The notes: generated from the letters alone by a model not told the origin. A stretch of 64,000 nucleotides of DNA from Dehalococcoidia bacterium (GCA_048539495.1 JBLYPS010000008.1:837-64836); one strand, 5' to 3'. Shown: positions 39,248 to 60,765, counted from the stretch's first letter. Numbers and translations are program-made.

Positions 39248-40870
<1,623 letters not shown>

Positions 40871-41869: not shown

Positions 41870-41882
41870 GACGAGGTGTGAC

Positions 41883-42197: not shown

Positions 42198-42246
42198 CAA
42201 CGGCATACACGCGGACGGGGATTCCGCTTACGCTTCCTCCCCGCCG

Positions 42247-43122: not shown

Positions 43123-43153
43123 ACCCGACGGTTAGGCCGGAAAGGGTGGCCAC

Positions 43154-43954: not shown

Positions 43955-44186
43955 CATTTGGAATTGGCCTAACAAAGCGCTCCACACGAACTGCCGCTCC
44001 GGTCTCGGCTTCGGCCTGAGCGTCGGGCATTTCGACACTGGTCGGCCTGATCACTTCTTCGCCAAGGCGGCGGTCGGTGAGCTGTGTCGTTGGACGGCGT
44101 GCCATGCATCACCAGCACCGCAACGACCCCATCCACATATCCCGCATTGCTTGCTTGTCTTTCAATTCAGGGTACAATGAGGGTCA

Positions 44187-44420
44187 ATGCGCTTTGAGAT
44201 TATCAGTGAAATCATACACGTCGAAACCATCGCCGTCGGCTCGTCCATTCGCGAGATTACACGTTTACGAAAACGTTACGGCAAGGGGCGCTGGCGGAAG
44301 ATGAAAGGCGTGGCGACCATCCAGTTAGCGAATGGCAAAGTTCGGTTGACAGAAATCCACTGGTACGAAGCGCACGGAATTGGCAAGAAGGAGTACAAGC
44401 GGAAACGCTATTTGGACTAA
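44187..44420 (+). CDS. small basic hypothetical protein
   Basis: 77 aa, Lys/Arg-rich C-terminus (HWYEAHGIGKKEYKRKRYLD). Forms a tight pair with the next small ORF, a TA-like arrangement. Confidence 0.35.
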   Translation: MRFEIISEIIHVETIAVGSSIREITRLRKRYGKGRWRKMKGVATIQLANGKVRLTEIHWYEAHGIGKKEYKRKRYLD

Positions 44421-44431
44421 GGTTAAGGGCA

Positions 44432-44689
44432 ATGAAATCCGTCAAATCACTTCCGGGCAAGTTTGCAATCTGTGTCAATAACGCCGACTATCCCGTCTCG
44501 CTGGAACTGCACAAGCTCTATGGCCTGGTGCCAGATGAGGAGGCCGAGCGAGATGGCGACTTGCGCGTGATTGACGAAAGCGGCGAAGACTATTTGTATC
44601 CAGCGGAGTATTTTCTGGTGGTGGAATTCCCTCAGACGATACAACAGGCATTACAAACGTCTTTCGCACGCACAGTGCAACCCGCGTAA
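44432..44689 (+). CDS. small acidic hypothetical protein
   Basis: 85 aa, acidic (DEEAERDGDLRVIDESGEDYLY). Starts 12 nt after the previous ORF. Confidence 0.35.
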   Translation: MKSVKSLPGKFAICVNNADYPVSLELHKLYGLVPDEEAERDGDLRVIDESGEDYLYPAEYFLVVEFPQTIQQALQTSFARTVQPA

Positions 44690-44784
44690 GCGTCAAATCC
44701 AGGCACGCGGTCCAACACGGCATGCGGCCGACCGCTTCGCGCTGCGCCCTCGCCGCGGCTGATGCCCACGTTAGGCGACGCGGT

Positions 44785-46230
44785 ATGAACCCTTTCTTGC
44801 CAAGCCCTATGATGGAATCGATCTCCGACTATACTCTTGAAAGATTCTCGCGAGCGGTCACGCTCACAGTTCTCGAACTGGACGTAGACCGCCATGCACT
44901 CGTTCCCGCCTACCTCATAGCCAACCTCATGTCGCCAGCTTTGTGGAGATGGCGGGAAGAGCGCAGAGCCTGCGCTCGGAATGGGCAGCTCTTGGGCGCG
45001 AACCGCCGTCTCAAGGAGCTCGAAAGACACTTCCACCGATACACATTCACGCACTTCGCAGACCAGCCAGGCGGCGATCCGTGGGGCTTACTCAGCTTCT
45101 CAGACGAAGAACAGCGTCTCGGGAGCGAGTACGTTCGACATGCGCGGCAGGAGTACGACGAGACGCTTAAGGGCCTGCTGAGGCAGAACCCTGATAGCCA
45201 GTTCGGGCAGATCGTCAAGCAGGATTACTATGAGCGTGGATACTTCCCACGGCTGAGGAATGAGACCCTCGAGGTAATGGACGCGTATTCCACCATTTCG
45301 GACGACGGCAGAGGCTCGGGCAAGTGTGCCGCACTCGCAATGCTTTGGGCAGCCGCGCTTATGGTTTGGGGCCGCTTCCCTCCTGAGAGAATCGCACTGA
45401 TAGGGAACCGTGCCCACGTATTCGTGTTCCTCGATGAGGATAATGGTCACCTCTTCAACAACACAAAGTGGTTCAGTCGGACAAGAATCCACAACGCGTC
45501 GGAGCTCTCCGAGTTCGTGAAGATGGTTACGACCGGCACGAGCACAACGTTCTTCTACTGCCCATCCCTCGGAATGTGCCAGTGTTCAGAGAGGAAATCG
45601 ACGATCCCGTGCGATCACTTAGTGGAGTTGTACCGCCATGTTCGAGACTTCCTCTCGGTTCCCCTGAGGCACCCGGACCCGGCGAACATCTGCTTCGAGG
45701 GAGTATCTGATCCCATTCCGCTCCCATCCGCGTACACCTCAGCCCAGGACTATCGTGATGCCGTCTGGGCCTTGGCGGATCGTCGCCCGGAGTCGGTCTA
45801 CGACTTGGCTCGGTATGCATACCGGTCGCTGGATGTGCCTGCGCCCGCGGTATACGCTCGGGCCGCTCTTCGTGACTATCATGCCCAGGACGCAGCGCGG
45901 CGCATCGGAGATCTCGAAGGGGCCATAGAGTTCGTAAGGAGGATACCCGGACGCCGTTCCGTATTCGACAGCAGAGAACGTATCCAGCTGCCTGACGAGA
46001 CGTTGGCCTTCCGAACAGGCGATGACAGCGACAGGGCACTGCTTCTGTTCACCTTACTTTCGCACTCCTGTGGGCAGTCATCTCGGGTCGGGGTCGCCTT
46101 GACCGATGATGCCAGCTATGTGCGTTTCGAGGGGCTCTGGGTAAATGCTGGTACGCTGTCGGTCGAGTCCCGGACGCCTGAAGGAGTGACCTCTGTGTTC
46201 AACGAGATGGGGAGTTCAGTCGTTTCGTGA
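44785..46230 (+). CDS. large hypothetical protein with a possible transglutaminase-like/papain-like Cys-His-Asp core
   Basis: A GSGKCAALAMLWAAALMVWG segment is followed about 30 aa later by HVFVFLDEDNGHLFNNTKW. That spacing suggests a transglutaminase-like cysteine protease core, but this is uncertain. 482 aa from the Met at 44785; the ORF track starts at 44722. Confidence 0.4.
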   Translation: MNPFLPSPMMESISDYTLERFSRAVTLTVLELDVDRHALVPAYLIANLMSPALWRWREERRACARNGQLLGANRRLKELERHFHRYTFTHFADQPGGDPWGLLSFSDEEQRLGSEYVRHARQEYDETLKGLLRQNPDSQFGQIVKQDYYERGYFPRLRNETLEVMDAYSTISDDGRGSGKCAALAMLWAAALMVWGRFPPERIALIGNRAHVFVFLDEDNGHLFNNTKWFSRTRIHNASELSEFVKMVTTGTSTTFFYCPSLGMCQCSERKSTIPCDHLVELYRHVRDFLSVPLRHPDPANICFEGVSDPIPLPSAYTSAQDYRDAVWALADRRPESVYDLARYAYRSLDVPAPAVYARAALRDYHAQDAARRIGDLEGAIEFVRRIPGRRSVFDSRERIQLPDETLAFRTGDDSDRALLLFTLLSHSCGQSSRVGVALTDDASYVRFEGLWVNAGTLSVESRTPEGVTSVFNEMGSSVVS

Positions 46231-46554
46231 CAACAGGATCGCCTAACAAGTCGCTGTTATGCAAAAAGTGGCTCTCCTCAAATAAGTGGGGATTTTTGCC
46301 CCGGCCCGCCACGCTCAATCAAGACGCAGAGCGGTGATTATCAAAGAAGGGTAACTACAAGCTCGACAAATGAGCTTCTGAATCGTGCCGCTGAGACTCT
46401 CAGTAAAATCATGTGGGGGATACCTTACCCCACTAAGAGCCTCCAAAAAGTCAAGGTTTTTGCGGCTCATATAGCTCACCTGGCAAAGGGAATTGTTGCA
46501 TTTCTCGGCACAGTGTTCTATATTGTTAGCAGTGGGTTAGCCTAAGTCGTTGAG

Positions 46555-46983
46555 TTGATTAATTTATGGGTCAGACAAGATTTCGGAATTAGAAAGAGGA
46601 GAAAGAAGTTGAAACAAAAGTGTTCCAATCCAAAAATGTCAGAGATTTTGTTAGAGTATGCCTCTGATTATATCGGCATGGGAGTAACTTTAGAGGAAAA
46701 AGGGCACTACCTGAATTCAGCTATTATGGCATGGAATCTTTCCCTGTTCCCAGAAGGCGAAAGAGAAAAACAAAAGCAGGCAACTCTAAAAAGGCTCGAA
46801 GAATTGACTCCTGGTTCCAAGAATCTGGAGATTCTAAAACACAATTTGGCTATCTTGATCAAGAAAAAACTAACGCAATTCCCTGAGATTAAGGAGCTAA
46901 TCCTCAACGCAGAAATCAGCATTGTTGACGGCAAAGAGTGTCTATATGTTGCTTCTACTGATTTGCAGGAAACCAATGATTAG
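46555..46983 (+). CDS. hypothetical protein in a very AT-rich patch
   Basis: Lys-rich with low-GC codon usage, unlike its neighbours. The start may be the Met at 46636. Confidence 0.35.
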   Translation: MINLWVRQDFGIRKRRKKLKQKCSNPKMSEILLEYASDYIGMGVTLEEKGHYLNSAIMAWNLSLFPEGEREKQKQATLKRLEELTPGSKNLEILKHNLAILIKKKLTQFPEIKELILNAEISIVDGKECLYVASTDLQETND

Positions 46984-47245
46984 CACAGGGCCAATGGTGA
47001 CATCATCCTGATTTTGGAGAGTCTTATCAAGCGTAGTCCTCAGAGCGTGGGAAAGCCTACTACAAGGGGAAGGACTTGACGGGAGTACGTAGCTCGCAAA
47101 GAGCCTGCCCTGAGCGAAGCCGAAGGGAAACTTATGCCGGACATAGCAGGACCGGAGCAACATAAGCCAAACTCCCTGCGGGGAATAGCAAACAGGTCGG
47201 GAGCCGGCAACGGTTACGACCTGCGCGGAACCGAGTACAACCGAG

Positions 47246-47279
47246 GAACCGGATGCGGGAAAATCGCACGTCCGGGTCT
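47246..47279 (+). ncRNA. group II intron domain V-like motif (probable degenerate intron 3' remnant)
   Basis: GAACCGGATGCGGGAAAATCGCACGTCCGGGTCT resembles the domain V consensus GAGCCGTATGCGATGAAAGTCGCACGTACGGTTCT. It has the same 2-nt AC bulge and helix register, and a hairpin follows. No intron-encoded reverse transcriptase is present. Confidence 0.4.
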
Positions 47280-47365
47280 GTGCGGGGGGCGACGGGTAAC
47301 CGGCGTTCCTACCGCGGCGGCTTGGAGTGAGTGATGAAACAGAGGGTATCATATAGAAGGTTAAC

Positions 47366-47587
47366 ATGAGCGCTATAGAGATGTTACAAACGGGGGAATT
47401 TGTGGTGGATGCCCACGGGAATAGGAGAGCTGTGTTGCTCGATTACAAAGTTTGGGAAGAACTGTTGACCTTGCTTGAAGATTGGGAAGATGCGGAGGAC
47501 ATTCGTCGTCTCCACGAGACCGGAGAGGAGGCAATCCCGTGGGAACAAGCGAAAGCAGAGCTACGAGCTAAGGGGATAGATGTATAG
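47366..47587 (+). CDS. type II antitoxin (Phd/RelB-like partner of the RelE/ParE toxin)
   Basis: 73 aa, acidic, 8 nt overlap with the downstream RelE/ParE toxin. Confidence 0.6.
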   Translation: MSAIEMLQTGEFVVDAHGNRRAVLLDYKVWEELLTLLEDWEDAEDIRRLHETGEEAIPWEQAKAELRAKGIDV

Positions 47588-47831
47588 CGTCTGCATCCTG
47601 CGGGGGGCCATCAAGGACATCGCCGACTTACCTAAGGAGTATGCCCGTTTGGCCAGCGAGCATATTGACCGCTTGCGGGAGAACCCTCGTCCGCCAGGTG
47701 CAAAGAAACTCCGAGGGACGACAGATTACAGTTTACGGGTGGGGGTGTATCGCATTCTCTACGACATAGATGATAGCCCTCGCATTGTCACCGTCTATCG
47801 AGTGAAACATCGGCGCGAAGCCTATCGCTGA
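47580..47831 (+). CDS. RelE/ParE-family type II toxin
   Basis: LPKEYARLASEHIDRLRENPRPPGAKKLRGTTDYSLRVGVYRILYDIDDSPRIVTVYRVKHRREAY is the RelE/ParE pattern. Confidence 0.8.
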   Translation: MYSVCILRGAIKDIADLPKEYARLASEHIDRLRENPRPPGAKKLRGTTDYSLRVGVYRILYDIDDSPRIVTVYRVKHRREAYR

Positions 47832-48161
47832 TTGTATTCGTTGGAGGCCAAAGCCGACTAACATCCGCTGCAGCCGACCTGTCTCCGCTGGCGCTCCGGC
47901 GGACGGCTGAGCTTTTCCGTTGCAGAGCGACAGCGATCAATGGAACGGGAGGGATGCAATATTACCCGTACTTGCATTCGTAATCCGTAGCAGTTATAAT
48001 ATCTTCAAATCCAACGAATTCCCCTCATCGCTATGGGGCGACATAGCGCAATCATCTTCTTTTTGGAGCAGGTATAAAAATGGCCTGTGATGAACCTGCG
48101 GCACACGTTGCCGAAGATGGCCGCTGTCATACCCTTTGTGATTGAGAAGTAAGGAGGATCA

Positions 48162-50501
48162 ATGACAAACGCGTCGGCTGACTATCTTGCCCACTCAGCA
48201 AACAAATATGGCAAGGTTGATCTCCTTCGTTCTCACCTCCAAAACGTTGCCAACCGCGCAGCCGAGTATGCCGAGACCTTCGGCGCTTCGGAGGAAGCCA
48301 GGCTGGCGGGTCTGCTGCACGATCTGGGGAAATATGGTGACTTGTTCCAGAGGCGACTTGAGGGGAAGGAAAGTGGGATTGATCACTGGTCGTCCGGAGC
48401 GTGGGAGGCTCTCACTAAACATCAGCAACGCGGAATTGCCATAGCCCTGGCAATCCAGGGACACCATGTCGGACTTCAGCATGCATCTGGAGATGCTCTA
48501 AGGGGCATTAATCCTGAGAAGCTGCAGGGATATCATTCGCTGGGCTTGCGACTCTCAGAGCCCGATACCAAGAAGCTGCTGCAACGGCTTGGTACGGACG
48601 GTCTGAACTTATCCCCAATCTCTTCCTCTCTTTATCCGGGGGTAAAGGAATCCTTCGAACAGAAAGAGACCGCTGCTGCCATGATGGATGTGCGGATGTT
48701 ATTCTCCACTTTGGTGGACGCTGACTTCATAGAAACTGAGGCCCATTTCCAGGAGGACTCGGATGGCAGTAAAGCTTACCGTGAGACAGGGCCTCTATTG
48801 AAACCCCAACAGACCCTGTTGCATCTCCTGGCCTACTTAAAAGAACTGGCAGTCGGTTCCGAAGCCGCCCCGCACGTGAATCAATTGCGCACACATCTAT
48901 TGCAGGCTTGTTTGGCCGCGGGAGACTTGCCGCAGGGGATTTTCACTCTTACGGCCCCGACAGGAACAGGAAAGACATTTAGCATGCTGGCCTTTGGCCT
49001 GCAACACGCGGTGAAACATGATCTTGAACGGATCATTATGGTGATTCCCTACCTGAGCATTATTGAGCAGACGGTGAGGGAGTATCGGAAAGCCCTCAAA
49101 AAATGCTTTGGTTCAGAGAGTATGCAATTCATTTTGGAGAATCACAGCCTTGCAGGCACCCGCGCCGGTGATGGGAGCGATAGCGGAAAAGAAGCCGACA
49201 TGGAGAACGAATCTCGCCGACGGGCACAGTTGCTCGCAGAGAACTGGGATGCCCCTATTGTTGTCACCACCAGTGTTCAATTGCTTGAGTCCCTGTTCGC
49301 CAATCGACCCTCGGCGTGTCGCAAACTGCATCGTCTGGCCAAGAGCGTCATTTTCTTTGATGAAGTGCAGACGCTTCCCGTATCGCTTGCTATCCCCACC
49401 CTGGCCACACTCTCCCGCCTGGCAGAACGATATGGCGCAACAGTGGTCTTCTCCACGGCCACACAGCCCGCTTTTGTGCATCTGAATGATCATGTAAGGG
49501 AATACTGCACTGGCGGTTGGGGAGCATCCGAAATTGTCCCCCCCCGGCTGAAGCTTTTCAGCAGGGCCAGGCGAACTTGTGTCGAATGGCCCGAGAATCT
49601 CAACCAGACGCTATCCTGGACAGCACTGGCCGAGCAGATTTCTCAGCACGAACGAAAGCAAGTCCTTTGCATTGTCAACCTGAAGACACACGCGCTCTTT
49701 CTGCATCAAAAGCTGGAGGAGCTCGGTGTTGAAGGGCTCTTTCATCTTTCCACCAATATGTGTCCGGCTCATCGACAGGATGCCCTGGAGCAAGTACGCC
49801 AGCAGCTGGATAAGAAACACCCATGTCATCTAATCTCCACTCAGTGTGTCGAGGCAGGGGTGGATGTGGATTTTCCGGTTGTCTATCGGGCATTCGGCCC
49901 ACTTGACGCAATTGCTCAAGCAGCCGGGCGCTGCAACCGTAATGGCCACGCCGAAACGGGCATCGTTTACGTGTTTTTACCGGAAGAAGAGAGATACCCC
50001 GACGGGGCATATGAGCAGGCTGCCGGCATCACGCGCTTTCTCCTGCAGAAGCATGGTAAGGCTGGGATGGATATCCACGACCCGGCGCTCTTTGCCGAGT
50101 ACTATCGGGAGCTTTATGACCTCATGCGCCCGGAGAACCAGAAAAAAGAACTTGCCGACGCTATCAAAGGACAGCACTTCATTGAGGTGGCAAGCCTGTA
50201 TCGAGTTATTGCCCGGGATGCCATAAATGTTCTCGTTCCCTACGATATTGATGCCTTTGCCAAACTCGGAGGTGAGGTTCGCCAAACCGGATTGAACGGC
50301 AAATGGATCGCCAAAGCGCGCCCCCACACCATAGGCTTGTTCAGGCCAAAGCTGTATGACCCGGTCAGTTCGTATCTTGACCGCATTCCCATTGGGAAGG
50401 GCAACTACTCAGAGGAATGGTATATCTATCTGAATGCCGAACATTATGATCAAACAAAAGGGCTTGTCCTGCCAACTTCAATGGAATTGCTGATTGGTTG
50501 A
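48162..50501 (+). CDS. cas3: CRISPR-associated helicase/nuclease Cas3 (HD domain plus SF2 helicase)
   Basis: N-terminal HD motifs (LLHDLGKYGDLFQ; H...D), Walker A APTGTGKT, a DEVQ box (FFDEVQ), and a helicase C-terminal domain. It is the first gene of a type I-C operon. Confidence 0.9.
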   Translation: MTNASADYLAHSANKYGKVDLLRSHLQNVANRAAEYAETFGASEEARLAGLLHDLGKYGDLFQRRLEGKESGIDHWSSGAWEALTKHQQRGIAIALAIQGHHVGLQHASGDALRGINPEKLQGYHSLGLRLSEPDTKKLLQRLGTDGLNLSPISSSLYPGVKESFEQKETAAAMMDVRMLFSTLVDADFIETEAHFQEDSDGSKAYRETGPLLKPQQTLLHLLAYLKELAVGSEAAPHVNQLRTHLLQACLAAGDLPQGIFTLTAPTGTGKTFSMLAFGLQHAVKHDLERIIMVIPYLSIIEQTVREYRKALKKCFGSESMQFILENHSLAGTRAGDGSDSGKEADMENESRRRAQLLAENWDAPIVVTTSVQLLESLFANRPSACRKLHRLAKSVIFFDEVQTLPVSLAIPTLATLSRLAERYGATVVFSTATQPAFVHLNDHVREYCTGGWGASEIVPPRLKLFSRARRTCVEWPENLNQTLSWTALAEQISQHERKQVLCIVNLKTHALFLHQKLEELGVEGLFHLSTNMCPAHRQDALEQVRQQLDKKHPCHLISTQCVEAGVDVDFPVVYRAFGPLDAIAQAAGRCNRNGHAETGIVYVFLPEEERYPDGAYEQAAGITRFLLQKHGKAGMDIHDPALFAEYYRELYDLMRPENQKKELADAIKGQHFIEVASLYRVIARDAINVLVPYDIDAFAKLGGEVRQTGLNGKWIAKARPHTIGLFRPKLYDPVSSYLDRIPIGKGNYSEEWYIYLNAEHYDQTKGLVLPTSMELLIG

Positions 50502-50615
50502 TGTCGGAGCGTGATGCCAGACTTTAGCTTCGCCAAAGCGACTCTCAGGGGCGCGCTACGAAAATCCAGGTTGGAGGAGGTGCTATGTATAAATAACCGA
50601 AGTTGAAACCAGGGT

Positions 50616-51395
50616 TTGCCAGTCAGAAAGGAGAAAGGAGGTTGTGTGAAACCGAAAGATCAGGTGCTGGAAGTGTGGGGCGATTTCGCCTGCTTTACCA
50701 GACCGGAACTCAAGGTGGAGCGATTCAGCTATCCGGTTATCACGCCCTCGGCCGCGCGAGGCATCTACGATGCTATCTACTGTAAACCCAACAGAGACCC
50801 CACGAAGGCTGAATTCCGCTGGCAGGTAACCAGGATAGAAATCCTGTCACCACCGCAATACATTGCCTTGCGTCGCAACGAAGTTAAGGACAAGGCCCCA
50901 GCGAAGGCTATCGTTACTTGGATGAGCGGCAAAAAACCACCGGAGCCCCTCTGGGCTGATGGCACCTCGGACATGCTGGGCACGGACCAGAAAGGACGCA
51001 CGCAGCGGCAGACGATGGCTCTGAAAGGCGTTCGGTATCATCTACACGCAGAGGTCCGACCCTGGCCTGGGTTCGAAGATCGGCTACAAGCAATAGAAAA
51101 TTGCTTCCGCCGTCGCGCTGCCACCGGCAAGTGCATCTACCAGCCTTACTTTGGCTGCCGCGAGTTCCCCGCCTATTTCAAGTTGGTCGAGCCGGATGCC
51201 CCTTCCGTGGAACGGGTACAGGATGACAGGGATATCGGTTGGATGCTCTACGACGTTTTCGATCTTTCCCAACCGGGGGGCTGTGATGATGAACCTTGCA
51301 TTAGCCTCTTTCGGGCAAAAGTCACCGAAGGGATACTGAAAGTGCCAGAATATGAAAGCGAGGCGGTGCTCAAGGGTGTGAGGAGGGAACGCTGA
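50616..51395 (+). CDS. cas5: Cas5c/Cas5d (type I-C)
   Basis: LEVWGDFACFTRPELKVERFSYPVITPSAARGIYDAIYCKP is the Cas5d signature. The start may be the GTG at about 50645. Confidence 0.85.
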   Translation: MPVRKEKGGCVKPKDQVLEVWGDFACFTRPELKVERFSYPVITPSAARGIYDAIYCKPNRDPTKAEFRWQVTRIEILSPPQYIALRRNEVKDKAPAKAIVTWMSGKKPPEPLWADGTSDMLGTDQKGRTQRQTMALKGVRYHLHAEVRPWPGFEDRLQAIENCFRRRAATGKCIYQPYFGCREFPAYFKLVEPDAPSVERVQDDRDIGWMLYDVFDLSQPGGCDDEPCISLFRAKVTEGILKVPEYESEAVLKGVRRER

Positions 51396-53281
51396 TGCTG
51401 GATATACTTGTAAGATACGCACATGATCGTGGGCTGGAGCCAGAACCGGGCTTTAAGGCCAAGGACGTCCGCTGGGCTATTGTCTGCGACGCTGATAGTC
51501 GATTTCTCAATGTTCTCCAACTGGGCGATACAAGTCAGAAGAACAATCCGGGACAAACGTTTCATAAATGCCCGGACCTCAGCCAACCAGAGATGGTGGC
51601 AGGTGGAGAGACGAAAAGCCACTTCCTGGTGGAGACCGCCGAAGTTGTGGCACTCTACGGAAAGAATGCCGTTAATCCCAAAGTCCGCGAACGCCACCAG
51701 TACTTCGTGAAGCTACATCAGGATGCGGGAACGTCCATGCCTGAGCTGGCCAGGCTGGCAGAGCAACTTGGCCAGCCGGAAACCATCGGTGCGATACGAT
51801 CACGATTCGAATCTCAGAAAGTCAAGCCCTCCGAAAAGGTGACATTTCGAATCGGAAGTGCCTATCCTGTAGAGTCTGATGCATGGCATGACTGGTGGCG
51901 TGAGTTCAGAAAAGGGCTGGCAGGAGGCAAATCCGAGGGAAAAGAAGGAGCTGCAAAGAAATCCGCACGGAACAAAGACGCGAGCGCCTTGATGCGCTGT
52001 TTTATCACCGGGGAATTGGTCGAACCGGTACCCACGCACTTGAAGATAGAGAAGCTCGCCGATGTCGGCGGCCAGCGCAGTGGCGACGCCCTGATCTGTT
52101 TTGACAAAGAGGCATTTCGTTCATATCGGTTGGAGCAATCTGCCAATGCAGCGATCTCGGAGCAATCCATGGCATCCTATTGCGCTGCGCTTAATCACCT
52201 CATAAAAAGGAGCGGTCGGCGTTTGGCCGGAGCCAAGGTTGTTCACTGGTTCAAGAGAAAGGATGTGCCAGAAGAAGACGATCCTATGGCATGGCTGGAG
52301 GAAGGAGCGGGGCAACAGGAGCTGAATGCCCAACGCCGGGCTGAAGAACTGCTTCAGAGCATCCAGACTGGAAAGCGCCCTGATCTGGCCAATAACTACT
52401 TCTACGCACTCACACTCTCCGGGGCAGCGGGGCGAGTGATGGTGCGTGACTGGATGGAGGGGCGATTTGAGGAGTTGGTGACAAACATCTGCGCCTGGTT
52501 TGATGATCTGGAGATTGTAAACTTATCCGGCGTGAAAAGTGCCAGGACCCCAGGCATTGAGCGTGTGATCACATGTCTTTTGCCGCTGAAAAAGAAAAAT
52601 CAGGAGTACAAGGACTGGATCAAACCGATTGGAGCAGAACGTCTGAGCCTTTGGCAGGCAGCTATTCGTGGACGTAAGACACCGATTTCTCACAGCGCAG
52701 TGTCGCGTGCAGTATTGTTGAATCGAGAGTTTTGCTTATCAGCAAAACTGGAGGAGGCTCTCCAAAGAAACGATGACCGAGCAAACACTCTGTCTTTGCT
52801 CTATGCCCGCATGGGCCTGATGAAGGCGTATCACCTTCGCAAAAACAGGGAAGGAGGAAGAGAAACGATGACATCGGAGTTAAAACCATACTTGAATGAG
52901 GATCACCCTCACCCCGCTTACCACTGCGGGAGGCTCATGGCCGTACTGGCCGCCCTCCAGCGCGCCGCACTGGGGGATATCGGTGCAGGTGTGGTCCAGC
53001 GTTATTATGCTGCTGCCAGCAGCACGCCGGCGCTGGTGTTAGGACGCCTGACTCGCACCAGCCAGTTCCATCTGAATAAACTGGAGCAGGGGCTGGCCTA
53101 TTGGTACGAGAGCAAAATTGCCCAGATCTGGAGCCGCATTAAGGACGGTATTCCTGGAACATTGAGTCTGGAAGAACAGAGTCTTTTTGCCCTGGGCTAC
53201 TACCAGCAGATTGCTCACATGAGAACAAAACGGTCGGATAAGTCCGAAAATCAACCCAAAGAGGAGGACAACAATGAGTAA
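51395..53281 (+). CDS. cas8c: Cas8c/Csd1 (type I-C large subunit)
   Basis: 628 aa, between cas5c and cas7c. Its position and size fit Csd1, and it overlaps the neighbouring genes by a few nt. Confidence 0.75.
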
Positions 53282-54290
53282 CCCAATCACAAATCGCTAC
53301 GAGTTTCTCTATCTGTTTGACTGCGAAAACGGCAATCCCAACGGTGATCCCGATGCCGGCAATGCCCCGCGCATCGATCCTCAGGACATGTGTGGGCTGG
53401 TCTCCGACGTTGCCCTGAAGCGGCGGGTGCGTAATTATATCCAGCTCGCCAGGGGCAATCAGATGCCCAACGCCATCTTCATCGAGCACGCGACCAATCT
53501 GAATCGCCCCATCGTCCGCGCTCACGAAGAGACCGAAGGTGGACTTAGCGAAACCCAAAAAGGTGCAGGCAAGAAAAAGGTCGAGTTGGCCCGAGAGTGG
53601 ATGTGCAAGAACTTCTATGACGTGCGTACTTTTGGGGCGGTGATGAGCACTGGCCCAAACGCCGGCCAGGTGCGTGGCCCGGTGCAGTTCGCTTTTGCCC
53701 GCTCCCTCGATCCTGTTCTACCTCTCGATATCTCCATTACACGGATGGCGATAGCGGAAAACGTAAGGGGGGCAAAATCAAGTGAAGACTATGCAAAATG
53801 GGAAGCTGAGCAACCTGAAGACTCGCTCCGCACGATGGGCCGCAAAGCCATGATTCCCTATGGGTTGTACGTAGCCAAGGGCTTTATCAGCGCCCATCTT
53901 GCCGAGGGAACTGGCTTTTCTGAAGGTGATCTGGACTTGTTTTGGAACGCATTGCTTGGAATGTACGAACATGACCGCTCGGCGAGTAAGGGCCTCATGT
54001 CGGTGCGCGAGCCGATCTTCGTCTTCCAGCACGTGGGGACCGACAGCGATGAAAGGCAGCGAGCCCGGCAATCCAAACTTGGCTGTGCGCCCGCACATAA
54101 GCTTTTTGATCTCGTGGAGATTCAAAAGCGTGAGGGAGTCGATGTCCCTCGGACCTTTGCAAATTACCGGATTATATTCCACAAGAGTCGATTGCCGAAT
54201 GGTGTACGGGCCGGCTTCATTGTCTCAGGTGATGGCGGAAAAGCAGATATCCGCTGGGACGAGCCTCCTGACTCAATACTGGAAGGGTGA
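53274..54290 (+). CDS. cas7: Cas7c/Csd2 (type I-C backbone subunit)
   Basis: [30 protein letters not shown]...[15 protein letters not shown] is the Csd2 N-terminal signature. Confidence 0.9.
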
Positions 54291-54523
54291 GTGGAATAAC
54301 AGGCGGGTAATACTGTCAAATGACGTCCACTATTTTTGACTGCCTCGACCTGGGTAGAGATTATACCCCTCGCCCTAGGGCCGTCAAGGGTAAAGGCTTT
54401 GCCCGATCTGAAGCTCGCCCTTGACAGCCCGGCGGGCTCGGGATAACGTTTCCAGTAACAAGTCGAGGCAAGTTTGCATCTTTTTGGAGTAGCAGTCATT
54501 TGACAGAATAGGTAATCGTAGTT

Positions 54524-55204
54524 ATGTATAGTGAAGATGAACTCCTGCCCATCTCCGCCCTTCAGCACTTGCTCTTCTGTGAGCGCCGGGCGGCTCTGGT
54601 TCACATTGAGGGTCTGTGGGATGAAAATCCTTTCACCGTAGAGGGACGCTACCTGCATGAGCGCACGCACGAGATAGGTACCGAGGTTCGCGGTGACCTG
54701 CGAATCGCACGCGGCCTGCGTCTGCGCTCGCTCCGGTTGGGACTTACGGGAAAGGCAGATGTGGTAGAGTTCTGCCGTCTGCCGGAAGGTCGGGCAGGGG
54801 TATCTTTCGTGAATGTGAGCGGCCTATGGAATCCTATTCCTGTGGAATACAAGCGAGGCAGACTCCGCCATGAAAGGGGTTACGAAGTCCAGCTCTGCGC
54901 TCAGGCCATATGCCTGGAGGAAATGATGAACGTCGAGGTAGGAGCTGGGGCAATTTACTATGGCAAGACTCGCCGCCGGCTTGAAATCACCTTTGACGAG
55001 AAGCTCCGCCGGGAAACGGAAAGAGCCGCTGAACGTCTACATGAACTATTGGCATCTGAAGGAACGCCCGGGGCCGTTCATGGGCCGAAATGCAAGAGCT
55101 GTTCACTGCTCGATCTCTGTATGCCCGGCCTCACCGGCAAGCGACGGAATGTACGGGGATATCTGTCAAAGGCCATCGCCGAGGCAGGAGAGGATAAATT
55201 ATGA
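54524..55204 (+). CDS. cas4: Cas4 (RecB-like nuclease, Fe-S)
   Basis: ISALQHLLFCERRAALVHIEGLWDENPFTVEGRYLHER, a DxK-type core, and a C-terminal Cys cluster (CKSCSLLDLC). Confidence 0.85.
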   Translation: MYSEDELLPISALQHLLFCERRAALVHIEGLWDENPFTVEGRYLHERTHEIGTEVRGDLRIARGLRLRSLRLGLTGKADVVEFCRLPEGRAGVSFVNVSGLWNPIPVEYKRGRLRHERGYEVQLCAQAICLEEMMNVEVGAGAIYYGKTRRRLEITFDEKLRRETERAAERLHELLASEGTPGAVHGPKCKSCSLLDLCMPGLTGKRRNVRGYLSKAIAEAGEDKL

Positions 55205-56232
55205 AACGCTTGCTCAATACGCTGTATGTTACTACTCAGGGCTCCTATCTGGCGCGGGAGGGCGAGACGGTGCTGGTCCGGGTTGGCGGAGAAACGAAGC
55301 TCCGCCTGCCGGTCCATACTCTGGGCAGCATTGTATGTTTCGGTCAGGTTTCCTGCAGTCCGCCGCTGATGGGACTGTGCGCCGAGCGCAACGTGGCGAT
55401 CTCCTTCCTCAGCGAGCGAGGGAGGTTTTTCGCCCGGGTCGAGGGACCCGTCTCGGGCAATGTGTTGTTGCGACGCGAGCAGTACCGCCGAGCGGACGAC
55501 CCCGAAGTCTCAGCCGAACTCGCCCGCGCGATGGTCATTGCCAAGATCGCCAATTGCCGGACGGTTCTTCTCAGAGCGGCTCGTGACCGGCCCGAGGACG
55601 AGGGTGCTGGGAAGCTATCAGAGGCAGCCGATCGTCTGGCACAACATCTCAAGAGTCTGGAGAACCCGGTGCCGCTTGATACTGTGCGTGGCAAGGAAGG
55701 GGATGCGGCACGGCGGTACTTTGATGTTTTTGACCACCTGATCACCAGCCAAAAGGAGAGTTTCTTTTTCCACGAGCGCAGCCGCCGTCCGCCGCTGGAT
55801 AATATGAATGCGCTTCTTTCATTCCTGTATACCCTGCTGGTTCATGACGTTGCCGCGGCGCTTGAGGGAGTGGGGCTCGATCCGGCGGTGGGATATCTGC
55901 ATCGGGATCGACCGGGACGCCCGGGACTTGCGCTCGATATAATGGAGGAATTCAGGCCTTATCTGGCAGACCGCCTGGCGCTGTCGCTCGTGAACCGGCA
56001 ACAGATCAAGGGAAAGGGGTTTCGGAGAACGGAAACGGGAGCCGTGCTCATGGATGATGCCACCCGTAAAGAAGTGCTTGTAGCTTATCAAAAGCGGAAA
56101 CAGGAGGAAATTCAGCACCCTTTCTTAGGAGAAAAGGTTGAAGTAGGACTCCTGCCACATGTGCAGGCACTGCTTCTGGCACGGCACTTACGGGGAGACC
56201 TGAATGGGTATCCACCGTTTTTCTGGAAATAG
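55201..56232 (+). CDS. cas1: Cas1 integrase
   Basis: LNTLYVTTQGSYLAREGETVLV... with the Cas1 metal-binding region. 343 aa; start overlaps the cas4 stop. Confidence 0.9.
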   Translation: MKRLLNTLYVTTQGSYLAREGETVLVRVGGETKLRLPVHTLGSIVCFGQVSCSPPLMGLCAERNVAISFLSERGRFFARVEGPVSGNVLLRREQYRRADDPEVSAELARAMVIAKIANCRTVLLRAARDRPEDEGAGKLSEAADRLAQHLKSLENPVPLDTVRGKEGDAARRYFDVFDHLITSQKESFFFHERSRRPPLDNMNALLSFLYTLLVHDVAAALEGVGLDPAVGYLHRDRPGRPGLALDIMEEFRPYLADRLALSLVNRQQIKGKGFRRTETGAVLMDDATRKEVLVAYQKRKQEEIQHPFLGEKVEVGLLPHVQALLLARHLRGDLNGYPPFFWK

Positions 56233-56338
56233 GTAAACCCGACCCGTGGCTTTGCGCAAGTGCCATGGGTAGCACATTAACAACTGGATATTGAAGGACA
56301 GCAGTTTGGGGTAAGAATCATGAAACGGAGAGAGCAAA

Positions 56339-56629
56339 ATGCTGGTTCTGGTAACCTATGATGTTAGCACAGAGTCGGAGGGGGGACAGAAAAGGCTGCG
56401 GCGTGTGGCCAAGATATGCAAAAACTACGGCCAGAGGGTGCAGAAGTCGGTCTTTGAATGTTTGGTGGATCCTGCCCAGTGGGCGGCAATGCGACAGCGT
56501 TTGATAGATGAAATCAAGACCGAAGAAGACAGCTTGCGCTTCTATTTTCTGGGGAAGAACTGGAAGAGAAGAGTGGAGCATGTGGGAGCCAATGCCGGTT
56601 ACGATCCCGAGGGGCCCCTGATTGTTTGA
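56339..56629 (+). CDS. cas2: Cas2
   Basis: MLVLVTYDVSTESEGGQKRLRRVAKICKNYGQRVQKSVFEC; 96 aa. Confidence 0.9.
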   Translation: MLVLVTYDVSTESEGGQKRLRRVAKICKNYGQRVQKSVFECLVDPAQWAAMRQRLIDEIKTEEDSLRFYFLGKNWKRRVEHVGANAGYDPEGPLIV

Positions 56630-56760
56630 AGTGCCTTTTGCGCCGACCCGGAGCGATCGCGGATCACGTGTGGGGTCCGCGAGCTTTGAGAGTTCCTTTT
56701 TCCAGTCGCTTAAGGGCGTGTTCGCGCAGCGGCATGGATTAAAACGTATCTGGAGATACG

Positions 56761-58516
56761 GTCGCCCCCCACGCGGGGGCGTGGATTGAAACACGTTTTG
56801 GGAATCTCGAATCGACGGACTCGATGAGTCGCCCCCCACGCGGGGGCGTGGATTGAAACATTTCATCGAGGGCTTCACGGCTCAGCATAGGATGTCGCCC
56901 CCCACGCGGGGGCGTGGATTGAAACTTAACATATCTATCTTTGTTGTCCCACTCTTCGAGTCGCCCCCCACGCGGGGGCGTGGATTGAAACCTGTACGTT
57001 AGTACGTTTTCAAGAAGAAATATGGCGTCGCCCCCCACGCGGGGGCGTGGATTGAAACCGTTTCACCTCGAACCAGAACTTTTCGAGTTGAGTCGCCCCC
57101 CACGCGGGGGCGTGGATTGAAACTATTAAACCTGAGGAAACTTTCCTCGATTGTATGTCGCCCCCCACGCGGGGGCGTGGATTGAAACTTTGAACTCGAT
57201 GCCAGACGCCTTGCCTGGTCATGTCGCCCCCCACGCGGGGGCGTGGATTGAAACTCCCTTGACACCGACCTAAACCATCCATAAGTCATGTCGCCCCCCA
57301 CGCGGGGGCGTGGATTGAAACATTGACACTTTCAGGATGAGCATTCCATTTCATAGTCGCCCCCCACGCGGGGGCGTGGATTGAAACGATTACATCTGCG
57401 GGAGAAGCGTCTCGCGATTGAAGTCGCCCCCCACGCGGGGGCGTGGATTGAAACGGATGAGCCGCACAACAAGGATAGCATTTATTACGTCGCCCCCCAC
57501 GCGGGGGCGTGGATTGAAACACTGAGGCCACTGCTACCAGAACGGCCGAAGCGGGTCGCCCCCCACGCGGGGGCGTGGATTGAAACAATCGGCCTGCCTG
57601 CCATAACATCCGCTTCGCTTAGTCGCCCCCCACGCGGGGGCGTGGATTGAAACAGGCGAGACACCGGCCACGGCAAATTGCGTTGCTGGTCGCCCCCCAC
57701 GCGGGGGCGTGGATTGAAACTCTGCCGATCCATTGCTGCCGTAACAGTATCCCAGTCGCCCCCCACGCGGGGGCGTGGATTGAAACAAGTCGACTGGGTA
57801 TGTGTTTATGAGCTGCAACGGTCGCCCCCCACGCGGGGGCGTGGATTGAAACTCGAAATAATTGAGCTTGTGCATTTGCAGTCCCTGTCGCCCCCCACGC
57901 GGGGGCGTGGATTGAAACCGATGTCCAACAACCTCTAAAAGTTCCCCTTGGGAAGTCGCCCCCCACGCGGGGGCGTGGATTGAAACTTGATATATTTTAC
58001 CTTTCGGATATTCTCAAGTCGCCCCCCACGCGGGGGCGTGGATTGAAACCACCTCCTGAAACCCAGCTGTAGACCAGATCTCGTCGCCCCCCACGCGGGG
58101 GCGTGGATTGAAACTAGGATAACCTCGGCAAGGCGGAAGCCATCAGTAGTCGCCCCCCACGCGGGGGCGTGGATTGAAACCGCTTGGATACCTACCATGT
58201 AAAACCACACTTCGGTCGCCCCCCACGCGGGGGCGTGGATTGAAACAATGTAGGTGAAGATGTTCCCGGGTGAATCGGTTGTTAGGTCGCCCCCCACGCG
58301 GGGGCGTGGATTGAAACGGTAGAAAAGCATGATGCGCTTACGGAGGCAGTTAGTCGCCCCCCACGCGGGGGCGTGGATTGAAACACAAGTGCTTGGGGAT
58401 GTGATATAATGGAGAAAAGTCGCCCCCCACGCGGGGGCGTGGATTGAAACAGAGACGTCGCTGCTGCGGACCTTCACGGTGTAGGTCACCCCCCACGCGG
58501 GGGCGTGGATTGAAAC
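56761..58516 (+). CRISPR. CRISPR array, 27 repeats of 32 bp (GTCGCCCCCCACGCGGGGGCGTGGATTGAAAC) with 26 unique spacers of 31-39 bp
   Basis: Repeat starts: 56761, 56828, 56894, 56960, 57027, 57092, 57157, 57223, 57290, 57356, 57423, 57489, 57555, 57622, 57689, 57755, 57821, 57887, 57955, 58018, 58083, 58149, 58215, 58286, 58353, 58419, 58485. The last repeat has a G>A change (gtcAcc...). The repeat ends in ATTGAAAC, the type I-C 5'-handle, so transcription is on the + strand with the leader on the cas2 side. A degenerate repeat-like sequence sits in the leader at 56703-56745. Confidence 0.95.
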
Positions 58517-58611
58517 ACTGACGAGGCCCGGTAGAACGACCGAGCTTGTCAGGGAAAGGCGAACAAGCGGGAATCACTCAGCCGATAGAAACAAAACAGC
58601 CTAAATAAAAA

Positions 58612-58893
58612 ATGGTCTCCACGGACGGCAACATGAAACCTCAAATAACGGATACTCCCCCTCAAATGCGGCAGGTGCTGATCCAAGGATATCGAAAAAT
58701 GACACCTCGGCAGAAGATGCAACGTGTCAATGAACTCAACAAGGCCGTTCAGCAGCTAGCATTGCTTCGCATCAGGAAGCAGTACGGAGAGATTTCAGAG
58801 AGAGAGCGGATGCTTCGTTTGGCAGCTCTCTGGTTAGATAGAGAAACTATGATGAAAGTCTTTGATTGGGATCCCCACAAAGAGGGCTATTGA
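58612..58893 (+). CDS. small hypothetical protein within the CRISPR array region
   Basis: 93 aa, basic/helical, immediately upstream of a nucleotidyltransferase. May be its cognate partner. Confidence 0.4.
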   Translation: MVSTDGNMKPQITDTPPQMRQVLIQGYRKMTPRQKMQRVNELNKAVQQLALLRIRKQYGEISERERMLRLAALWLDRETMMKVFDWDPHKEGY

Positions 58894-58895
58894 AC

Positions 58896-59489
58896 ATGGT
58901 TCTGCCGGAGCCTACTCGAATCACTCAACTCGTTGCTAATATACTTGATCGCCTCCAGATCCCATACTTCGTTGGCGGTTCGCTGGCGAGTTCCCTTCAC
59001 GGAATCCCCAGGGCAACTCAAGATGCCGACATAGTGGCAGACATCAAATCGGAGCACATTGTGCCATTTGTGGAAGCTCTCAGAACACAGTTCTACGTTG
59101 ACGAACAGATGATACGGGATGCAATTGAACGCCGTTCGTCATTCAATGTGATTCATCTTGAAACCATGTTCAAGGTCGACGTCTTTGTATTTCGCAACGA
59201 ACTTGGCCGTGAGGCAATGGCACGCAGAGAGAGATATCAGCTATCAGATCAGTCTGCGAGTTACATCTTTCTCGCGACTGCAGAAGACATCATTCTAAGC
59301 AAACTTCAATGGTTCCGATTGGGAGAAGGGACTTCAGAGCGACAATGGCTGGATGTGTTGGGGGTTTTGCAGGTTCAAGGTGATAGGCTGGATTTCCCGT
59401 ATCTTCAACGAATGGCTGGCCAAATGGGCGTACATGACCTTCTAAGGCAGGCGATTGAGGATGCTGCCATAGATACCAGAGATAACTGA
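58896..59489 (+). CDS. minimal nucleotidyltransferase (Pol-beta superfamily) family protein
   Basis: QIPYFVGGSLASSLHGIPRATQDADIV gives the GS-x(n)-DxD nucleotidyltransferase signature. The ORF track starts at 58866; Met at 58896 chosen. Confidence 0.55.
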   Translation: MVLPEPTRITQLVANILDRLQIPYFVGGSLASSLHGIPRATQDADIVADIKSEHIVPFVEALRTQFYVDEQMIRDAIERRSSFNVIHLETMFKVDVFVFRNELGREAMARRERYQLSDQSASYIFLATAEDIILSKLQWFRLGEGTSERQWLDVLGVLQVQGDRLDFPYLQRMAGQMGVHDLLRQAIEDAAIDTRDN

Positions 59490-59586
59490 CACTCCCCGAC
59501 GGGGATTAACTTGAAACATCCAACGGGCAAACGACTAATCCAGTGTAACCAGGCTCGGCCCAACAAGTCAAAGGACAGCAGTTTTC

Positions 59587-59618
59587 GTCGCCCCCCACGC
59601 GGGGGCGTGGATTGAAAC
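59587..59618 (+). CRISPR. orphan CRISPR repeat (perfect consensus copy) about 1.07 kb downstream of the array
   Basis: gtcgccccccacgcgggggcgtggattgaaac is identical to the array consensus. It lies between the nucleotidyltransferase gene and queA. Confidence 0.9.
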
Positions 59619-59625
59619 AAGAGAG

Positions 59626-60651
59626 CTAAACTATCAGTGTGGCGTCACCGAAGCTGAGGAAACGGAACTTGTCCTGGATGGCGTGCTCGTAGGCCCGAAG
59701 AACGAAATCCTTTCCGGCGAAGGCGGAGACGAGCACGAGATGCGACGAGCGAGGAAGATGAAGGTTAGTGATGAGTCGGTCCACGACCTTGAAACGATAT
59801 CCCGGGGTGATAAAAAGCGAGGTCCAGTTGCAGCCGGGGCGGATCCTTCCGCTCTCATCAGCAACGCTCTCCAGCGCCCGCACCGCATCCGTCCCGCAAG
59901 CGATAATCTTCTTCCCCTCCGCTTTTGCCCGATTTACCGTCTCGGCCAATTCCGGGGGAACGCGGTGAAATTCAGGGGCGAGCCGATGTTCCTCGATGAA
60001 CTCCGTCCGTATGGATCTGAAGCTGGCGATGCCCATGTGAAGAGTGAAGAGTGCCAGCTTTATGCCCTTTTCCTCGACTCGCTGAAGCAGCTCAGTGGTA
60101 AAGTGAAGGGTGGCAGTGGGAGCAGCGGTGGAACCCCAATCCTGGGCCAGAACCGTCTGATAGCGTTCGGGGTCGGCAAGGGGCTCCTTGATATAAGGGG
60201 GCAGAGGGACCTCACCCCATTTTCCCATGGCGATGATTGCCGCTCCGGATGAAGGGAAGCAGACGATCCTTGTCCCCTCTGCGGTCCTTTCAAAGACCTT
60301 CACCTTCATCCCGTCTCCGAGGACTATCTCCGATCCCGGGGCAAGCCGGCCGCCCGGACGGACCAGGGCTTCCCATCTTCCCTCGCCCAGATCCCGCAAA
60401 AGAAATACCTCCGCCTTCCCGCCGGTTGGTTTACTGCCGTGTAGCCTTGCCATGATCACCCGGGTATCGTTCATCACCAGCACATCCCCCGGCTCCAGGT
60501 AGTTTATGATCTGCCTAAAGATTCCGCTGCTAACGGTCTTCATTCCCCGATCAAGGATCAAGAGCCGCGAGCTATCCCGGGGTTCAAGCGGCGTCTGGGC
60601 GATCAGTTCCTGAGGAAGATGGTAGTCGAAATCTTCTGTCTTCAGCCACAT
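59626..60651 (-). CDS. queA: S-adenosylmethionine:tRNA ribosyltransferase-isomerase
   Basis: MWLKTEDFDYHLPQELIAQTPLEPRDSSRLL is the QueA N-terminus. The ORF's first 18 codons lie in repeat element 60657-60700, so the Met at 60651 was chosen. Confidence 0.85.
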   Translation of the reverse strand: MWLKTEDFDYHLPQELIAQTPLEPRDSSRLLILDRGMKTVSSGIFRQIINYLEPGDVLVMNDTRVIMARLHGSKPTGGKAEVFLLRDLGEGRWEALVRPGGRLAPGSEIVLGDGMKVKVFERTAEGTRIVCFPSSGAAIIAMGKWGEVPLPPYIKEPLADPERYQTVLAQDWGSTAAPTATLHFTTELLQRVEEKGIKLALFTLHMGIASFRSIRTEFIEEHRLAPEFHRVPPELAETVNRAKAEGKKIIACGTDAVRALESVADESGRIRPGCNWTSLFITPGYRFKVVDRLITNLHLPRSSHLVLVSAFAGKDFVLRAYEHAIQDKFRFLSFGDATLIV

Positions 60652-60656
60652 AACGG

Positions 60657-60765
60657 TTGGAGTCGATAGTCGAGGGTCTGGAGTCTCCCGCCTTCCCTCC
60701 TGCATTCGGGGGCCAGGGGTCGGGGGTCAGGGATCAACCCCGCCCCCCGACCCCTGTCAACTGAG
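60657..60765. repeat. adjacent family A-like (60657-60700) and C-family (60700-60765) heptamer elements upstream of queA
   Basis: gagtcgatagtcgagggtctggagtctcccgcc... and ccaggggtcgggggtcagggatcaaccccgccccccgacccctgtcaactga. Confidence 0.75.

Follow-up and report, generated by a model that had tools for sequence, protein, structure and literature searches.

In the type I-C (Dvulg) CRISPR-Cas systems, Cas5c (Cas5d) cuts at the 3′ base of the repeat hairpin and thereby leaves an 11-nt 5′ handle on the CRISPR RNA (crRNA), while the small subunit Cas11c is translated from an internal start within cas8c. The prototype is the locus of plasmid pDV of Nitratidesulfovibrio (Desulfovibrio) vulgaris Hildenborough (NC_005863; array at L122:9001-10814), in which the genes cas3-cas5c-cas8c-cas7c-cas4-cas1c-cas2 are followed by the array. 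Here we describe a locus of this kind in a stretch of 64,000 nt, called the window, whose source lineage is Dehalococcoidia, here an uncultured bacterium, according to the record names of identical and near-identical proteins and contigs; coordinates given without a contig name are those of the whole window. The genes and the array follow in the same order as in the prototype, but between the last two repeats stand two further genes, which form a putative toxin-antitoxin (TA) pair. With a probability of roughly 85%, we read the whole as a complete type I-C immune locus in which recombination or rearrangement has led the array to enclose this gene cassette, a resident neighbour of queA.

Insertion sequence (IS) elements can interrupt CRISPR arrays, for instance IS6110 in the direct repeat (DR) locus of M. 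tuberculosis. In Sulfolobales, protein TA pairs (vapBC) are found in or beside CRISPR-cas modules in variable regions of the genome, and a maintenance role has been proposed for them (PMC4390879). CreTA and the crRNA-like mini-arrays are repeat-flanked TA units embedded in type I CRISPR-cas loci (cited in PMC8730458; bioRxiv 10.1101/2024.10.29.618823). CreTA is an RNA toxin with a crRNA-like antitoxin, and its short pseudo-spacer, in part a match to the promoter of the toxin, lies between degenerate repeats. MenAT1 of M. tuberculosis (Rv0078B-Rv0078A) is composed of a small upstream protein followed by a nucleotidyltransferase (NTase) of ~195 aa (PMC10435456, PMC11375011). The antitoxin MenA1 has 68 aa and no DNA-binding domain, its gene lies directly upstream of menT1, and MenA antitoxins in general are diverse (PMC10435456). 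The NTase residues conserved in MenT1 are T39, D41, K137 and D152, of which T39 is the site of antitoxin-induced auto-phosphorylation (PMC11375011).

The cas operon and the repeat array

Profile searches were made against NCBIfam, with its curated cut-offs, and against Pfam. They revealed seven open reading frames (ORFs) on the + strand at 48162-56629, in the order cas3-cas5c-cas8c-cas7c-cas4-cas1-cas2, each of which covers nearly the full length of its profile (Table 1). The subtype models of Cas5c, Cas8c, Cas7 and Cas1c all score above cut-off, and Cas3, Cas4 and Cas2 are intact, in agreement with the complete I-C operon in canonical order that had been reported in a first-pass annotation of the sequence. 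The same annotation had named frameshifts in a cas gene as a ground for doubting the activity of the system; judged by profile coverage, no sign of frameshift or truncation was found in any of the seven. Cas3 matches HD, DEAD and Cas3-like_C_2 in Pfam, corresponding to an HD nuclease fused to a helicase, and Cas8c also matches PF09709 (Cas_Csd1) with E = 1e-93. For cas5c, TTG 50616 marks no more than the earliest start that is possible, the profile match beginning at residue 18. No cas6 is present in the operon (48162-56629), as had been noted before, and its gaps hold no other long ORF, the rest of the window not having been exhaustively scanned. Within cas8c and in its frame, an ATG at 52868 is preceded by GGGAAGGAGGAAGAGAAACG, which contains GGAGG; the product of this internal start would fit the Cas11c small subunit. 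Because every sequence-testable defining feature of I-C was found, the locus is, as far as sequence can define it, a member of type I-C (Dvulg).

Table 1. Features of the locus and of the segment following the array, in window coordinates.
Feature	Coordinates	Strand	Description
cas3	48162-50501	+	779 aa; TIGR01596 cas3_HD at residues 22-192 and TIGR01587 cas3_core at 261-610, both above cut-off
cas5c	50616-51395	+	up to 259 aa; TIGR01876 at 116.4 bits (cut-off 85), covering 1-202 of its 203 positions
cas8c/csd1	51395-53281	+	628 aa; large subunit and subtype signature; TIGR01863, 269.6 bits (cut-off 218.65)
candidate internal cas11c	52868-53281	+	137 aa; in frame within cas8c
cas7c/csd2	53274-54290	+	338 aa; TIGR02589, 320.5 bits (cut-off 182.25)
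cas7-cas4 gap	54291-54523		233 bp; absent from the pDV prototype and from variant L092
cas4	54524-55204	+	226 aa; TIGR00372, 126.8 bits (cut-off 65)
cas1c	55201-56232	+	343 aa; TIGR03640 cas1_DVULG, 531.7 bits (cut-off 385)
cas2	56339-56629	+	96 aa; TIGR01573, 77.6 bits (cut-off 24.5)
leader	56630-56760	+	131 bp; between cas2 and repeat 1
CRISPR array	56761-58516	+	26 unique spacers (31-39 nt) between 27 repeats (32 nt each)
repeat 27	58485-58516	+	G4A variant (GTCA...); same variant in L002 and L003
lineage-specific stretch (left)	58517-58603	+	87 bp that follow repeat 27, without homology in the CRISPR-less L009
ORF1	58612-58893	+	93 aa, or 86 aa from ATG 58633; putative MenA-like antitoxin
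ORF2	58896-59489	+	197 aa; MenT1-like nucleotidyltransferase, putative toxin
lineage-specific stretch (right)	59490-59586	+	97 bp from ORF2 to repeat 28; absent from L009 and L010; unlike the leader
repeat 28	59587-59618	+	exact copy; 1,070 bp past repeat 27, 7 nt from the queA stop codon
queA	59626-60705	convergent with the array	right neighbour of repeat 28

The likeness to the prototype extends to the repeat, as 25 of the 28 pDV repeats are identical to that of the window at 32 of 32 positions, across phyla, and the earlier description of the repeat as a typical I-C one holds; the spacers of pDV (32-36 nt) are of similar length. The proteins, in contrast, have diverged, with identities of 30% for Cas8c, 38% for Cas3, 41% for Cas5c, 51% for Cas7, 52% for Cas4, 65% for Cas1 and 67% for Cas2. 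Moreover, the host belongs to another phylum, the leaders differ, the window locus is chromosomal and lies among housekeeping genes whereas the prototype is plasmid-borne, and pDV has neither the gap between cas7 and cas4 nor a distant extra repeat or genes embedded in its array. The gap contains two promoter-like sites, known by consensus match only, one of the + strand (54336-54364, 9/12) and one of the - strand (54387-54360, TTGACG-16-TATAAT, 11/12); the gap is also close to the breakpoint of the module swap in contig L092, described below.

The repeat, GTCGCCCCCCACGCGGGGGCGTGGATTGAAAC (32 nt), occurs in 28 copies on the + strand, against 0 expected from 100 dinucleotide-preserving shuffles. 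The first 27 make up the regular array with a start-to-start period of 63-71 nt; 26 of these 27 are exact, and the 26 spacers between them are all different, as already stated in the first-pass annotation. From spacer 1 to spacer 26 the lengths are 35, 34, 34, 35, 33, 33, 34, 35, 34, 35, 34, 34, 35, 35, 34, 34, 34, 36, 31, 33, 34, 34, 39, 35, 34 and 34 nt. The two outliers are spacer 19 (31 nt, 57987-58017) and spacer 23 (39 nt, 58247-58285), which had been listed as 20 and 24 through a numbering off by one. The array had furthermore been taken to end at 58516, so that the 28th, exact repeat and the gene pair embedded before it were missed.

The predicted fold of the repeat, at -15.1 kcal/mol, has a G+C stem of 7 bp closed by a loop of 5 nt and, on the 3′ side, a tail of 11 nt, UGGAUUGAAAC; it agrees with processing of the Cas5c type. 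Since the tail beyond the base of the stem is 11 nt long, the crRNA 5′ handle left by a cut at this base would also be 11 nt, namely UGGAUUGAAAC. The handle given previously, ATTGAAAC, is indeed present in the tail but constitutes only its last 8 nt. The orientation of the array is supported by the leader on the cas2 side, by the repeat ending in ATTGAAAC and by the distal position of the only mutated repeat of the regular array. In this repeat 27, the G4A exchange weakens the second pair of the stem and shifts the predicted fold.

The last 40 nt of the leader are identical in L093 and L094, two of the sister contigs, despite their differing spacer content. Promoter scans were of little informative value: none of the sites fell in the leader, and the 9 sigma-70-like sites of the operon do not clearly exceed the number in shuffles (5.2 ± 2.3); upstream of cas3, TTGCAT-17-TATAAT is seen by eye at 47972-48000. 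There is no Rfam match within the array or the cassette. Degenerate repeats spotted by eye at ~56723-56745 (leader) and ~59491-59518 (after ORF2) were dropped owing to background-level scores, and no additional degenerate repeats were found above background.

A MenT1-like gene pair between repeats 27 and 28

Database profiles are silent on the two ORFs that lie between repeats 27 and 28. Neither has a match in Pfam, NCBIfam, PADLOC or PHROG (for ORF2, none at E ≤ 0.01 in the first three), and ORF2 belongs to a large, unannotated family without a Pfam domain, with 2,743 matches at E ≤ 1e-3. Its probable nature was indicated by structure prediction. An AlphaFold (AF2) model obtained from 35 homologs reached a predicted local distance difference test score (pLDDT) of 92 and a predicted template modelling (TM) score (pTM) of 0.86. 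In the Foldseek comparison of this model with the PDB, the top five matches were all MenT1 or MenAT1 entries (E = 7e-8 to 3e-6, TM 0.49-0.68); the two best, 8an5 and 8an4, gave E = 7e-8 and TM 0.62-0.68, and MenT1 has the same length as ORF2. A profile of the ORF2 family, searched against PDB sequences, returned 8an4 as well (“AbiEii/AbiGii toxin family”, E = 5e-4), over the N-terminal 70 residues only. In this alignment the N-terminal G-G/S...R-x-T-x-D-x-D motif is common to both proteins, and T41 and D43 of ORF2 fall on T39 and D41 of MenT1. Across the aligned family no variation is seen at T41, D45, K136 or D153, and almost none at D43; K136 and D153 are near K137 and D152 of MenT1 by position only, without explicit alignment. 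Sequence identity between ORF2 and MenT1 is just 15-20%, and the Pfam DUF1814/AbiEii domain is not matched.

ORF1 resembles MenA1 in being a small protein without recognisable DNA-binding domain, encoded directly upstream of the NTase. A homolog of ORF1 directly precedes that of ORF2 in 74 of 91 loci, with a typical gap of 3-6 nt, and the pair is conserved across phyla. No similarity of ORF1 to MenA1 is detectable, which is not decisive because MenA antitoxins are diverse. Altogether, the model and the gene order point to a putative MenAT1-type TA module. We found no precedent for a MenAT-like pair between CRISPR repeats.

An assembly artefact was considered and rejected, as the same arrangement was met in several sister contigs of independent assembly (~99-100% identical to the window over the shared region); the two of them that reach the array, L002 and L003, run from repeat 27, including its G4A exchange, through queA. 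In seven sister contigs the cassette is followed by repeat 28, which is complete and succeeded by queA in L001-L006 and partial in L008; L007, too, ends inside this repeat. A different situation is met in L009, L010 and L011, relatives of ~90% nucleotide identity that are devoid of CRISPR: the cassette is located directly beside queA, and no repeat-like sequence is detected at up to 8 mismatches. Homology between the window and these relatives covers 58604-59471 only and then resumes exactly at the queA stop codon. On the right-hand side, the lineage-specific ~155 bp therefore start with the final 6 codons of ORF2, continue with 97 bp and with repeat 28, and close with 7 nt. On the left, the homology begins 8 nt before the start codon of ORF1, which in L009 overlaps the upstream gene, and the comparison reveals no conserved promoter region belonging to the cassette itself. 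The divergence of the cassette from the CRISPR-less relatives equals that of the flanking genes. Because both are equally diverged, the cassette appears to be an old resident beside queA and not a recent arrival. Closer relatives of the cassette were not found in a metagenome scan.

Upstream of the cassette, L009:1-3500 and L010:1-10000 contain rpsI-HNH and further small genes of TA-like character (a PemK fragment, a ParE-like gene, an IS with a DDE transposase). This region has no nucleotide similarity to the window, and the left edge of the cassette is thus a synteny breakpoint and a hotspot of small addiction modules. A similarity of 20 in 26 nt was also observed between 58635-58660, at the 5′ end of ORF1, and 59472-59497, where the homology of the relatives has just stopped (59471); it may be a remnant of a tandem or circular state that the cassette once had, or be due to chance.

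An insertion at the repeat boundary was seen in one further contig. L007:1-1829, compared with 58516-59612 of the window, starts with a partial repeat, followed by a 707-bp segment with a DUF6883/DUF4926 gene pair. This segment joins the window sequence exactly at the boundary of repeat 27, before the same 87 bp, cassette and repeat 28, so that L007 has two gene pairs between repeats. Such a second pair hints at a possibility, to be given little weight, that small gene cassettes prefer the trailer repeat as a place to land. Right after the repeat, L007 also displays short tandem echoes of the repeat 3′ end (AATTGAAAT, GATTGAAAC).

The boundary insertion in L007 is among the observations that would favour an origin of the cassette as mobile DNA, inserted in the last spacer of a 28-repeat array by transposition, by a repeat-bearing element or by aberrant integration through Cas1-Cas2. 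A repeat-segment-repeat order is what full-site integration, or recombination with a repeat-bearing element, is expected to leave. The first ~36 nt of the 87-bp stretch, moreover, sit where a spacer would and are a hotspot of single-nucleotide polymorphisms between strains: four of the five mismatches of L003 over 4.76 kb fall at 58531-58552, and L004 and L007 differ at 58518. In this respect the ~36 nt vary like the homologous spacers W8 and W9, which fits a relic spacer; the hotspot (58517-58552) could be such a relic, a short recombination tract or assembly noise beside the repeats. Nevertheless, neither cassette protein has a PHROG match, and the adjacency of cassette and queA in CRISPR-less relatives, at a divergence equal to that of the flanking genes, would require an unlikely coincidence or a later loss of CRISPR on both sides. 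There are no terminal inverted repeats and no target-site duplication around the 1,070-bp segment, for which reason transposon-type insertion was rejected. The segment is comparable to IS6110 in that ~1 kb of gene-bearing DNA breaks a regular array, but it has no transposase either, and it is syntenic with queA in relatives. We regard arrival as mobile DNA as unlikely. A duplicated leader-repeat unit as the source of repeat 28 was likewise rejected, since the sequence preceding this repeat resembles the leader no more than shuffles do.

Does the placement of the cassette serve a function? Read-through of the pre-crRNA into the cassette, with release by Cas5c at repeats 27 and 28, would yield a 1.1-kb “giant spacer” RNA whose ends resemble those of a crRNA. 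The expression of the TA pair would then be tied to array transcription and Cas5c, and the cells would depend on the CRISPR locus, which would make the pair a protein-based analogue of CreTA. Several features are in line with this proposition: the repeats bracket the cassette exactly, repeat 28 is undecayed (32/32) though it stands at the trailer end, and the layout is constant in all sister contigs while the upstream spacers vary. Furthermore, the cassette itself is without a conserved promoter, neither a terminator-like nor a promoter-like site is found on the + strand between repeat 27 and ORF1, the second gene pair of L007 exactly at the junction of repeat and segment implies that genes accumulate there, and TA pairs within cas cassettes have been proposed to help keep CRISPR-Cas (PMC4390879).

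Against these stand the retention of the cassette beside queA in CRISPR-less relatives and the absence of any CRISPR association of the ORF2 family in other lineages. None of 80 genome loci of the family, from many phyla, has a CRISPR array within 10 kb, nor is there an array near any of 23 metagenome loci from other lineages; a 24th, L098, does have an array but is the L002 contig. A general link of the family to CRISPR was rejected on these grounds. Unlike in CreTA and related circuits of crRNA-like RNAs, no partial spacer-like complementarity flanked by a TTC protospacer-adjacent motif (PAM) was detected in the window, where neither the spacers nor the stretches behind repeats 27 and 28 have a seed match of at least 10 nt beside a TTC PAM. 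The G4A exchange in repeat 27 may also hinder rather than favour processing. A functional role of the placement is therefore quite improbable in our estimation, and the same low weight is given to its more specific form, in which repeats 27 and 28 would be co-opted to produce a Cas5c-released mRNA that carries the 5′ handle of a crRNA and ends in a 3′ hairpin, i.e., a CreTA-like addiction module. The described systems differ in kind as well: the window pair is protein-based and its inter-repeat segment is 1,070 bp long, in contrast to CreTA, and the Sulfolobales pairs stand between cas gene cassettes, not between repeats, and belong to other TA families.

Spacer turnover and module exchange among sister contigs

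An identical Cas2 protein is encoded on nine contigs. L094 (2039-4520) has the same cas1, cas2 and leader end and 36 spacers, none of them common to the window. L093 (2064-5019) shares W1-W7 and W9-W16 with the window (W12 being partly masked by scaffold Ns), has ~20 extra spacers within this common set and carries close variants of W8 and W9. Such a pattern fits block deletion or recombination within arrays; spacer deletions are known to occur across arrays (PMC11472070). In L002:1-241, spacers 23 and 25 are the same as in the window, 24 and 26 differ, and an extra mutated repeat (C12T) is present, a mosaic which suggests recombination between arrays. Spacers 4 and 25 of L094 differ from each other solely at synonymous positions of one reading frame (SIAVIDELHAF), which indicates independent, repeated capture from related invaders.

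As contigs with identical cas1, cas2 and leader carry wholly different or extra spacers, acquisition appears to be active. The turnover thus supports, at the level of sequence comparison, that the I-C system is or recently was active in this lineage. An active acquisition history had previously been deduced from the uniqueness of the 26 spacers; the 36 different and ~20 extra spacers of sister contigs take this further.

The effector genes, too, appear to have been exchanged in one case. L092:1-8609, a contig of a related sample which was compared with 48162-56789, is 99.9% identical to the window in the part from 54679 to 56789, which starts 52 codons into cas4 and takes in cas1, cas2 and the leader; its Cas1 is 100% identical. 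Its Cas3 (37%), Cas5c (39%), Cas8c (26%) and Cas7 (47%), in contrast, show low identity to those of the window. It looks as if the interference module had recently been replaced while the adaptation module and the array stayed as they were.

The search for spacer targets that the first-pass annotation had recommended, covering self-matches as well as phages, plasmids and metagenomes, yielded none. No match to any of the 26 spacers exists in the window at up to 8 mismatches, and self-targeting within these 64 kb is excluded. With the 26 spacers alone as query, no target was found in INPHARED phages or PLSDB plasmids, where whole-array queries returned only other I-C arrays, via their repeats. 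Six scans of IMG/VR with exact or degenerate patterns of spacers 1-4, spacer 9 and one L094 spacer, and a scan of JGI metagenomes with the W9 pattern, gave no target, nor did 71 further spacers of sister contigs in the window and the fetched loci.

These negative searches could be taken to mean that the locus is an inactive relic whose genes look intact while neither adaptation nor interference takes place at present. The leader without a consensus promoter and the sigma-70-like sites of the operon, not clearly above shuffles, are compatible with this idea. On the other hand, all seven cas genes are full length, Cas1 and Cas2 are identical across contigs with wholly different spacer sets, and an absence of targets is expected in a poorly sampled lineage. 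A relic of this kind seems very improbable indeed.

Proposed action, neighbourhood and implications

We return to the reading of a complete type I-C locus enclosing a resident neighbour of queA. Several results weigh against it. No protospacer was found for any spacer in INPHARED, PLSDB, IMG/VR, JGI, the window or the fetched loci, and the leader is without a promoter-like site. ORF2 matches no model of Pfam (DUF1814/AbiEii included), NCBIfam or PADLOC. The two lineage-specific flanks, of 87 bp and ~155 bp, are not both explained by a simple insertion or by a simple capture, and the left flank is not syntenic with the relatives, so that either arrangement may be the ancestral one. Even so, the locus is an ordinary, complete and probably active one.

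What the sequences themselves show is the gene content, the intact state of the genes, the repeat with its fold and the turnover of spacers among sister contigs. The action of the locus would follow the usual course, for which we infer both the biochemistry and the PAM from the established subtype I-C. Cas1-Cas2, with Cas4 trimming and selecting the prespacers, would add spacers of ~34 nt beside the leader, and the leader would drive transcription of the array. Cas5c would then cut each repeat at the 3′ base of the 7-bp hairpin, giving crRNAs with the 11-nt 5′ handle UGGAUUGAAAC and a 3′ hairpin. Together with Cas8c, several Cas7 and the internally translated Cas11c, Cas5c would constitute Cascade, which would bind a PAM-flanked DNA match and recruit the HD nuclease-helicase Cas3, whereupon the target would be degraded. 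The enclosed MenAT1-like pair probably acts as an ordinary addiction module.

A second TA module is found on the other side of the locus. Directly upstream of cas3, at 47366-47831, are two genes, one encoding a RelB/Phd-like antitoxin of 73 aa and the other a ParE toxin of 83 aa. As the RelB/ParE pair precedes cas3 and the MenAT1-like pair follows the array, TA modules bracket the CRISPR-cas locus, and the two may incidentally stabilise it against deletion. Further upstream, 47244-47318 (+) matches the Rfam model RF00029, for domain V/VI of group II introns, at 42.9 bits against a gathering score of 40, and no recognisable reverse-transcriptase ORF is near this match, which is probably an intron remnant. 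Between GroEL (39248-40858, - strand) and cas3, the stretch 41718-46983 is reminiscent of a defence island. It encodes a helix-turn-helix protein (41718-42197), an ORF of 291 aa of unknown type, a TIR_2-domain protein (43154-43954) with PADLOC matches to TIR-containing models, and two ORFs of 502 and 142 aa without convincing family match.

As a CRISPR-Cas system, the locus is a textbook I-C member, which adds a Dehalococcoidia example with a repeat identical to that of the prototype, and on present evidence neither the embedded cassette nor the module swap changes its classification. What it contributes beyond this is a conserved MenT1-like TA pair, placed between two CRISPR repeats and belonging to a large family for which Pfam, NCBIfam and PADLOC have no entry. 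If this placement were functional, the TA safeguards of CRISPR would extend from RNA to protein pairs, and Cas5c would be able to shape mRNA. The sister contigs, with their spacer replacement, block insertions and deletions and exchange of the effector module, offer a compact natural example of modular CRISPR evolution.

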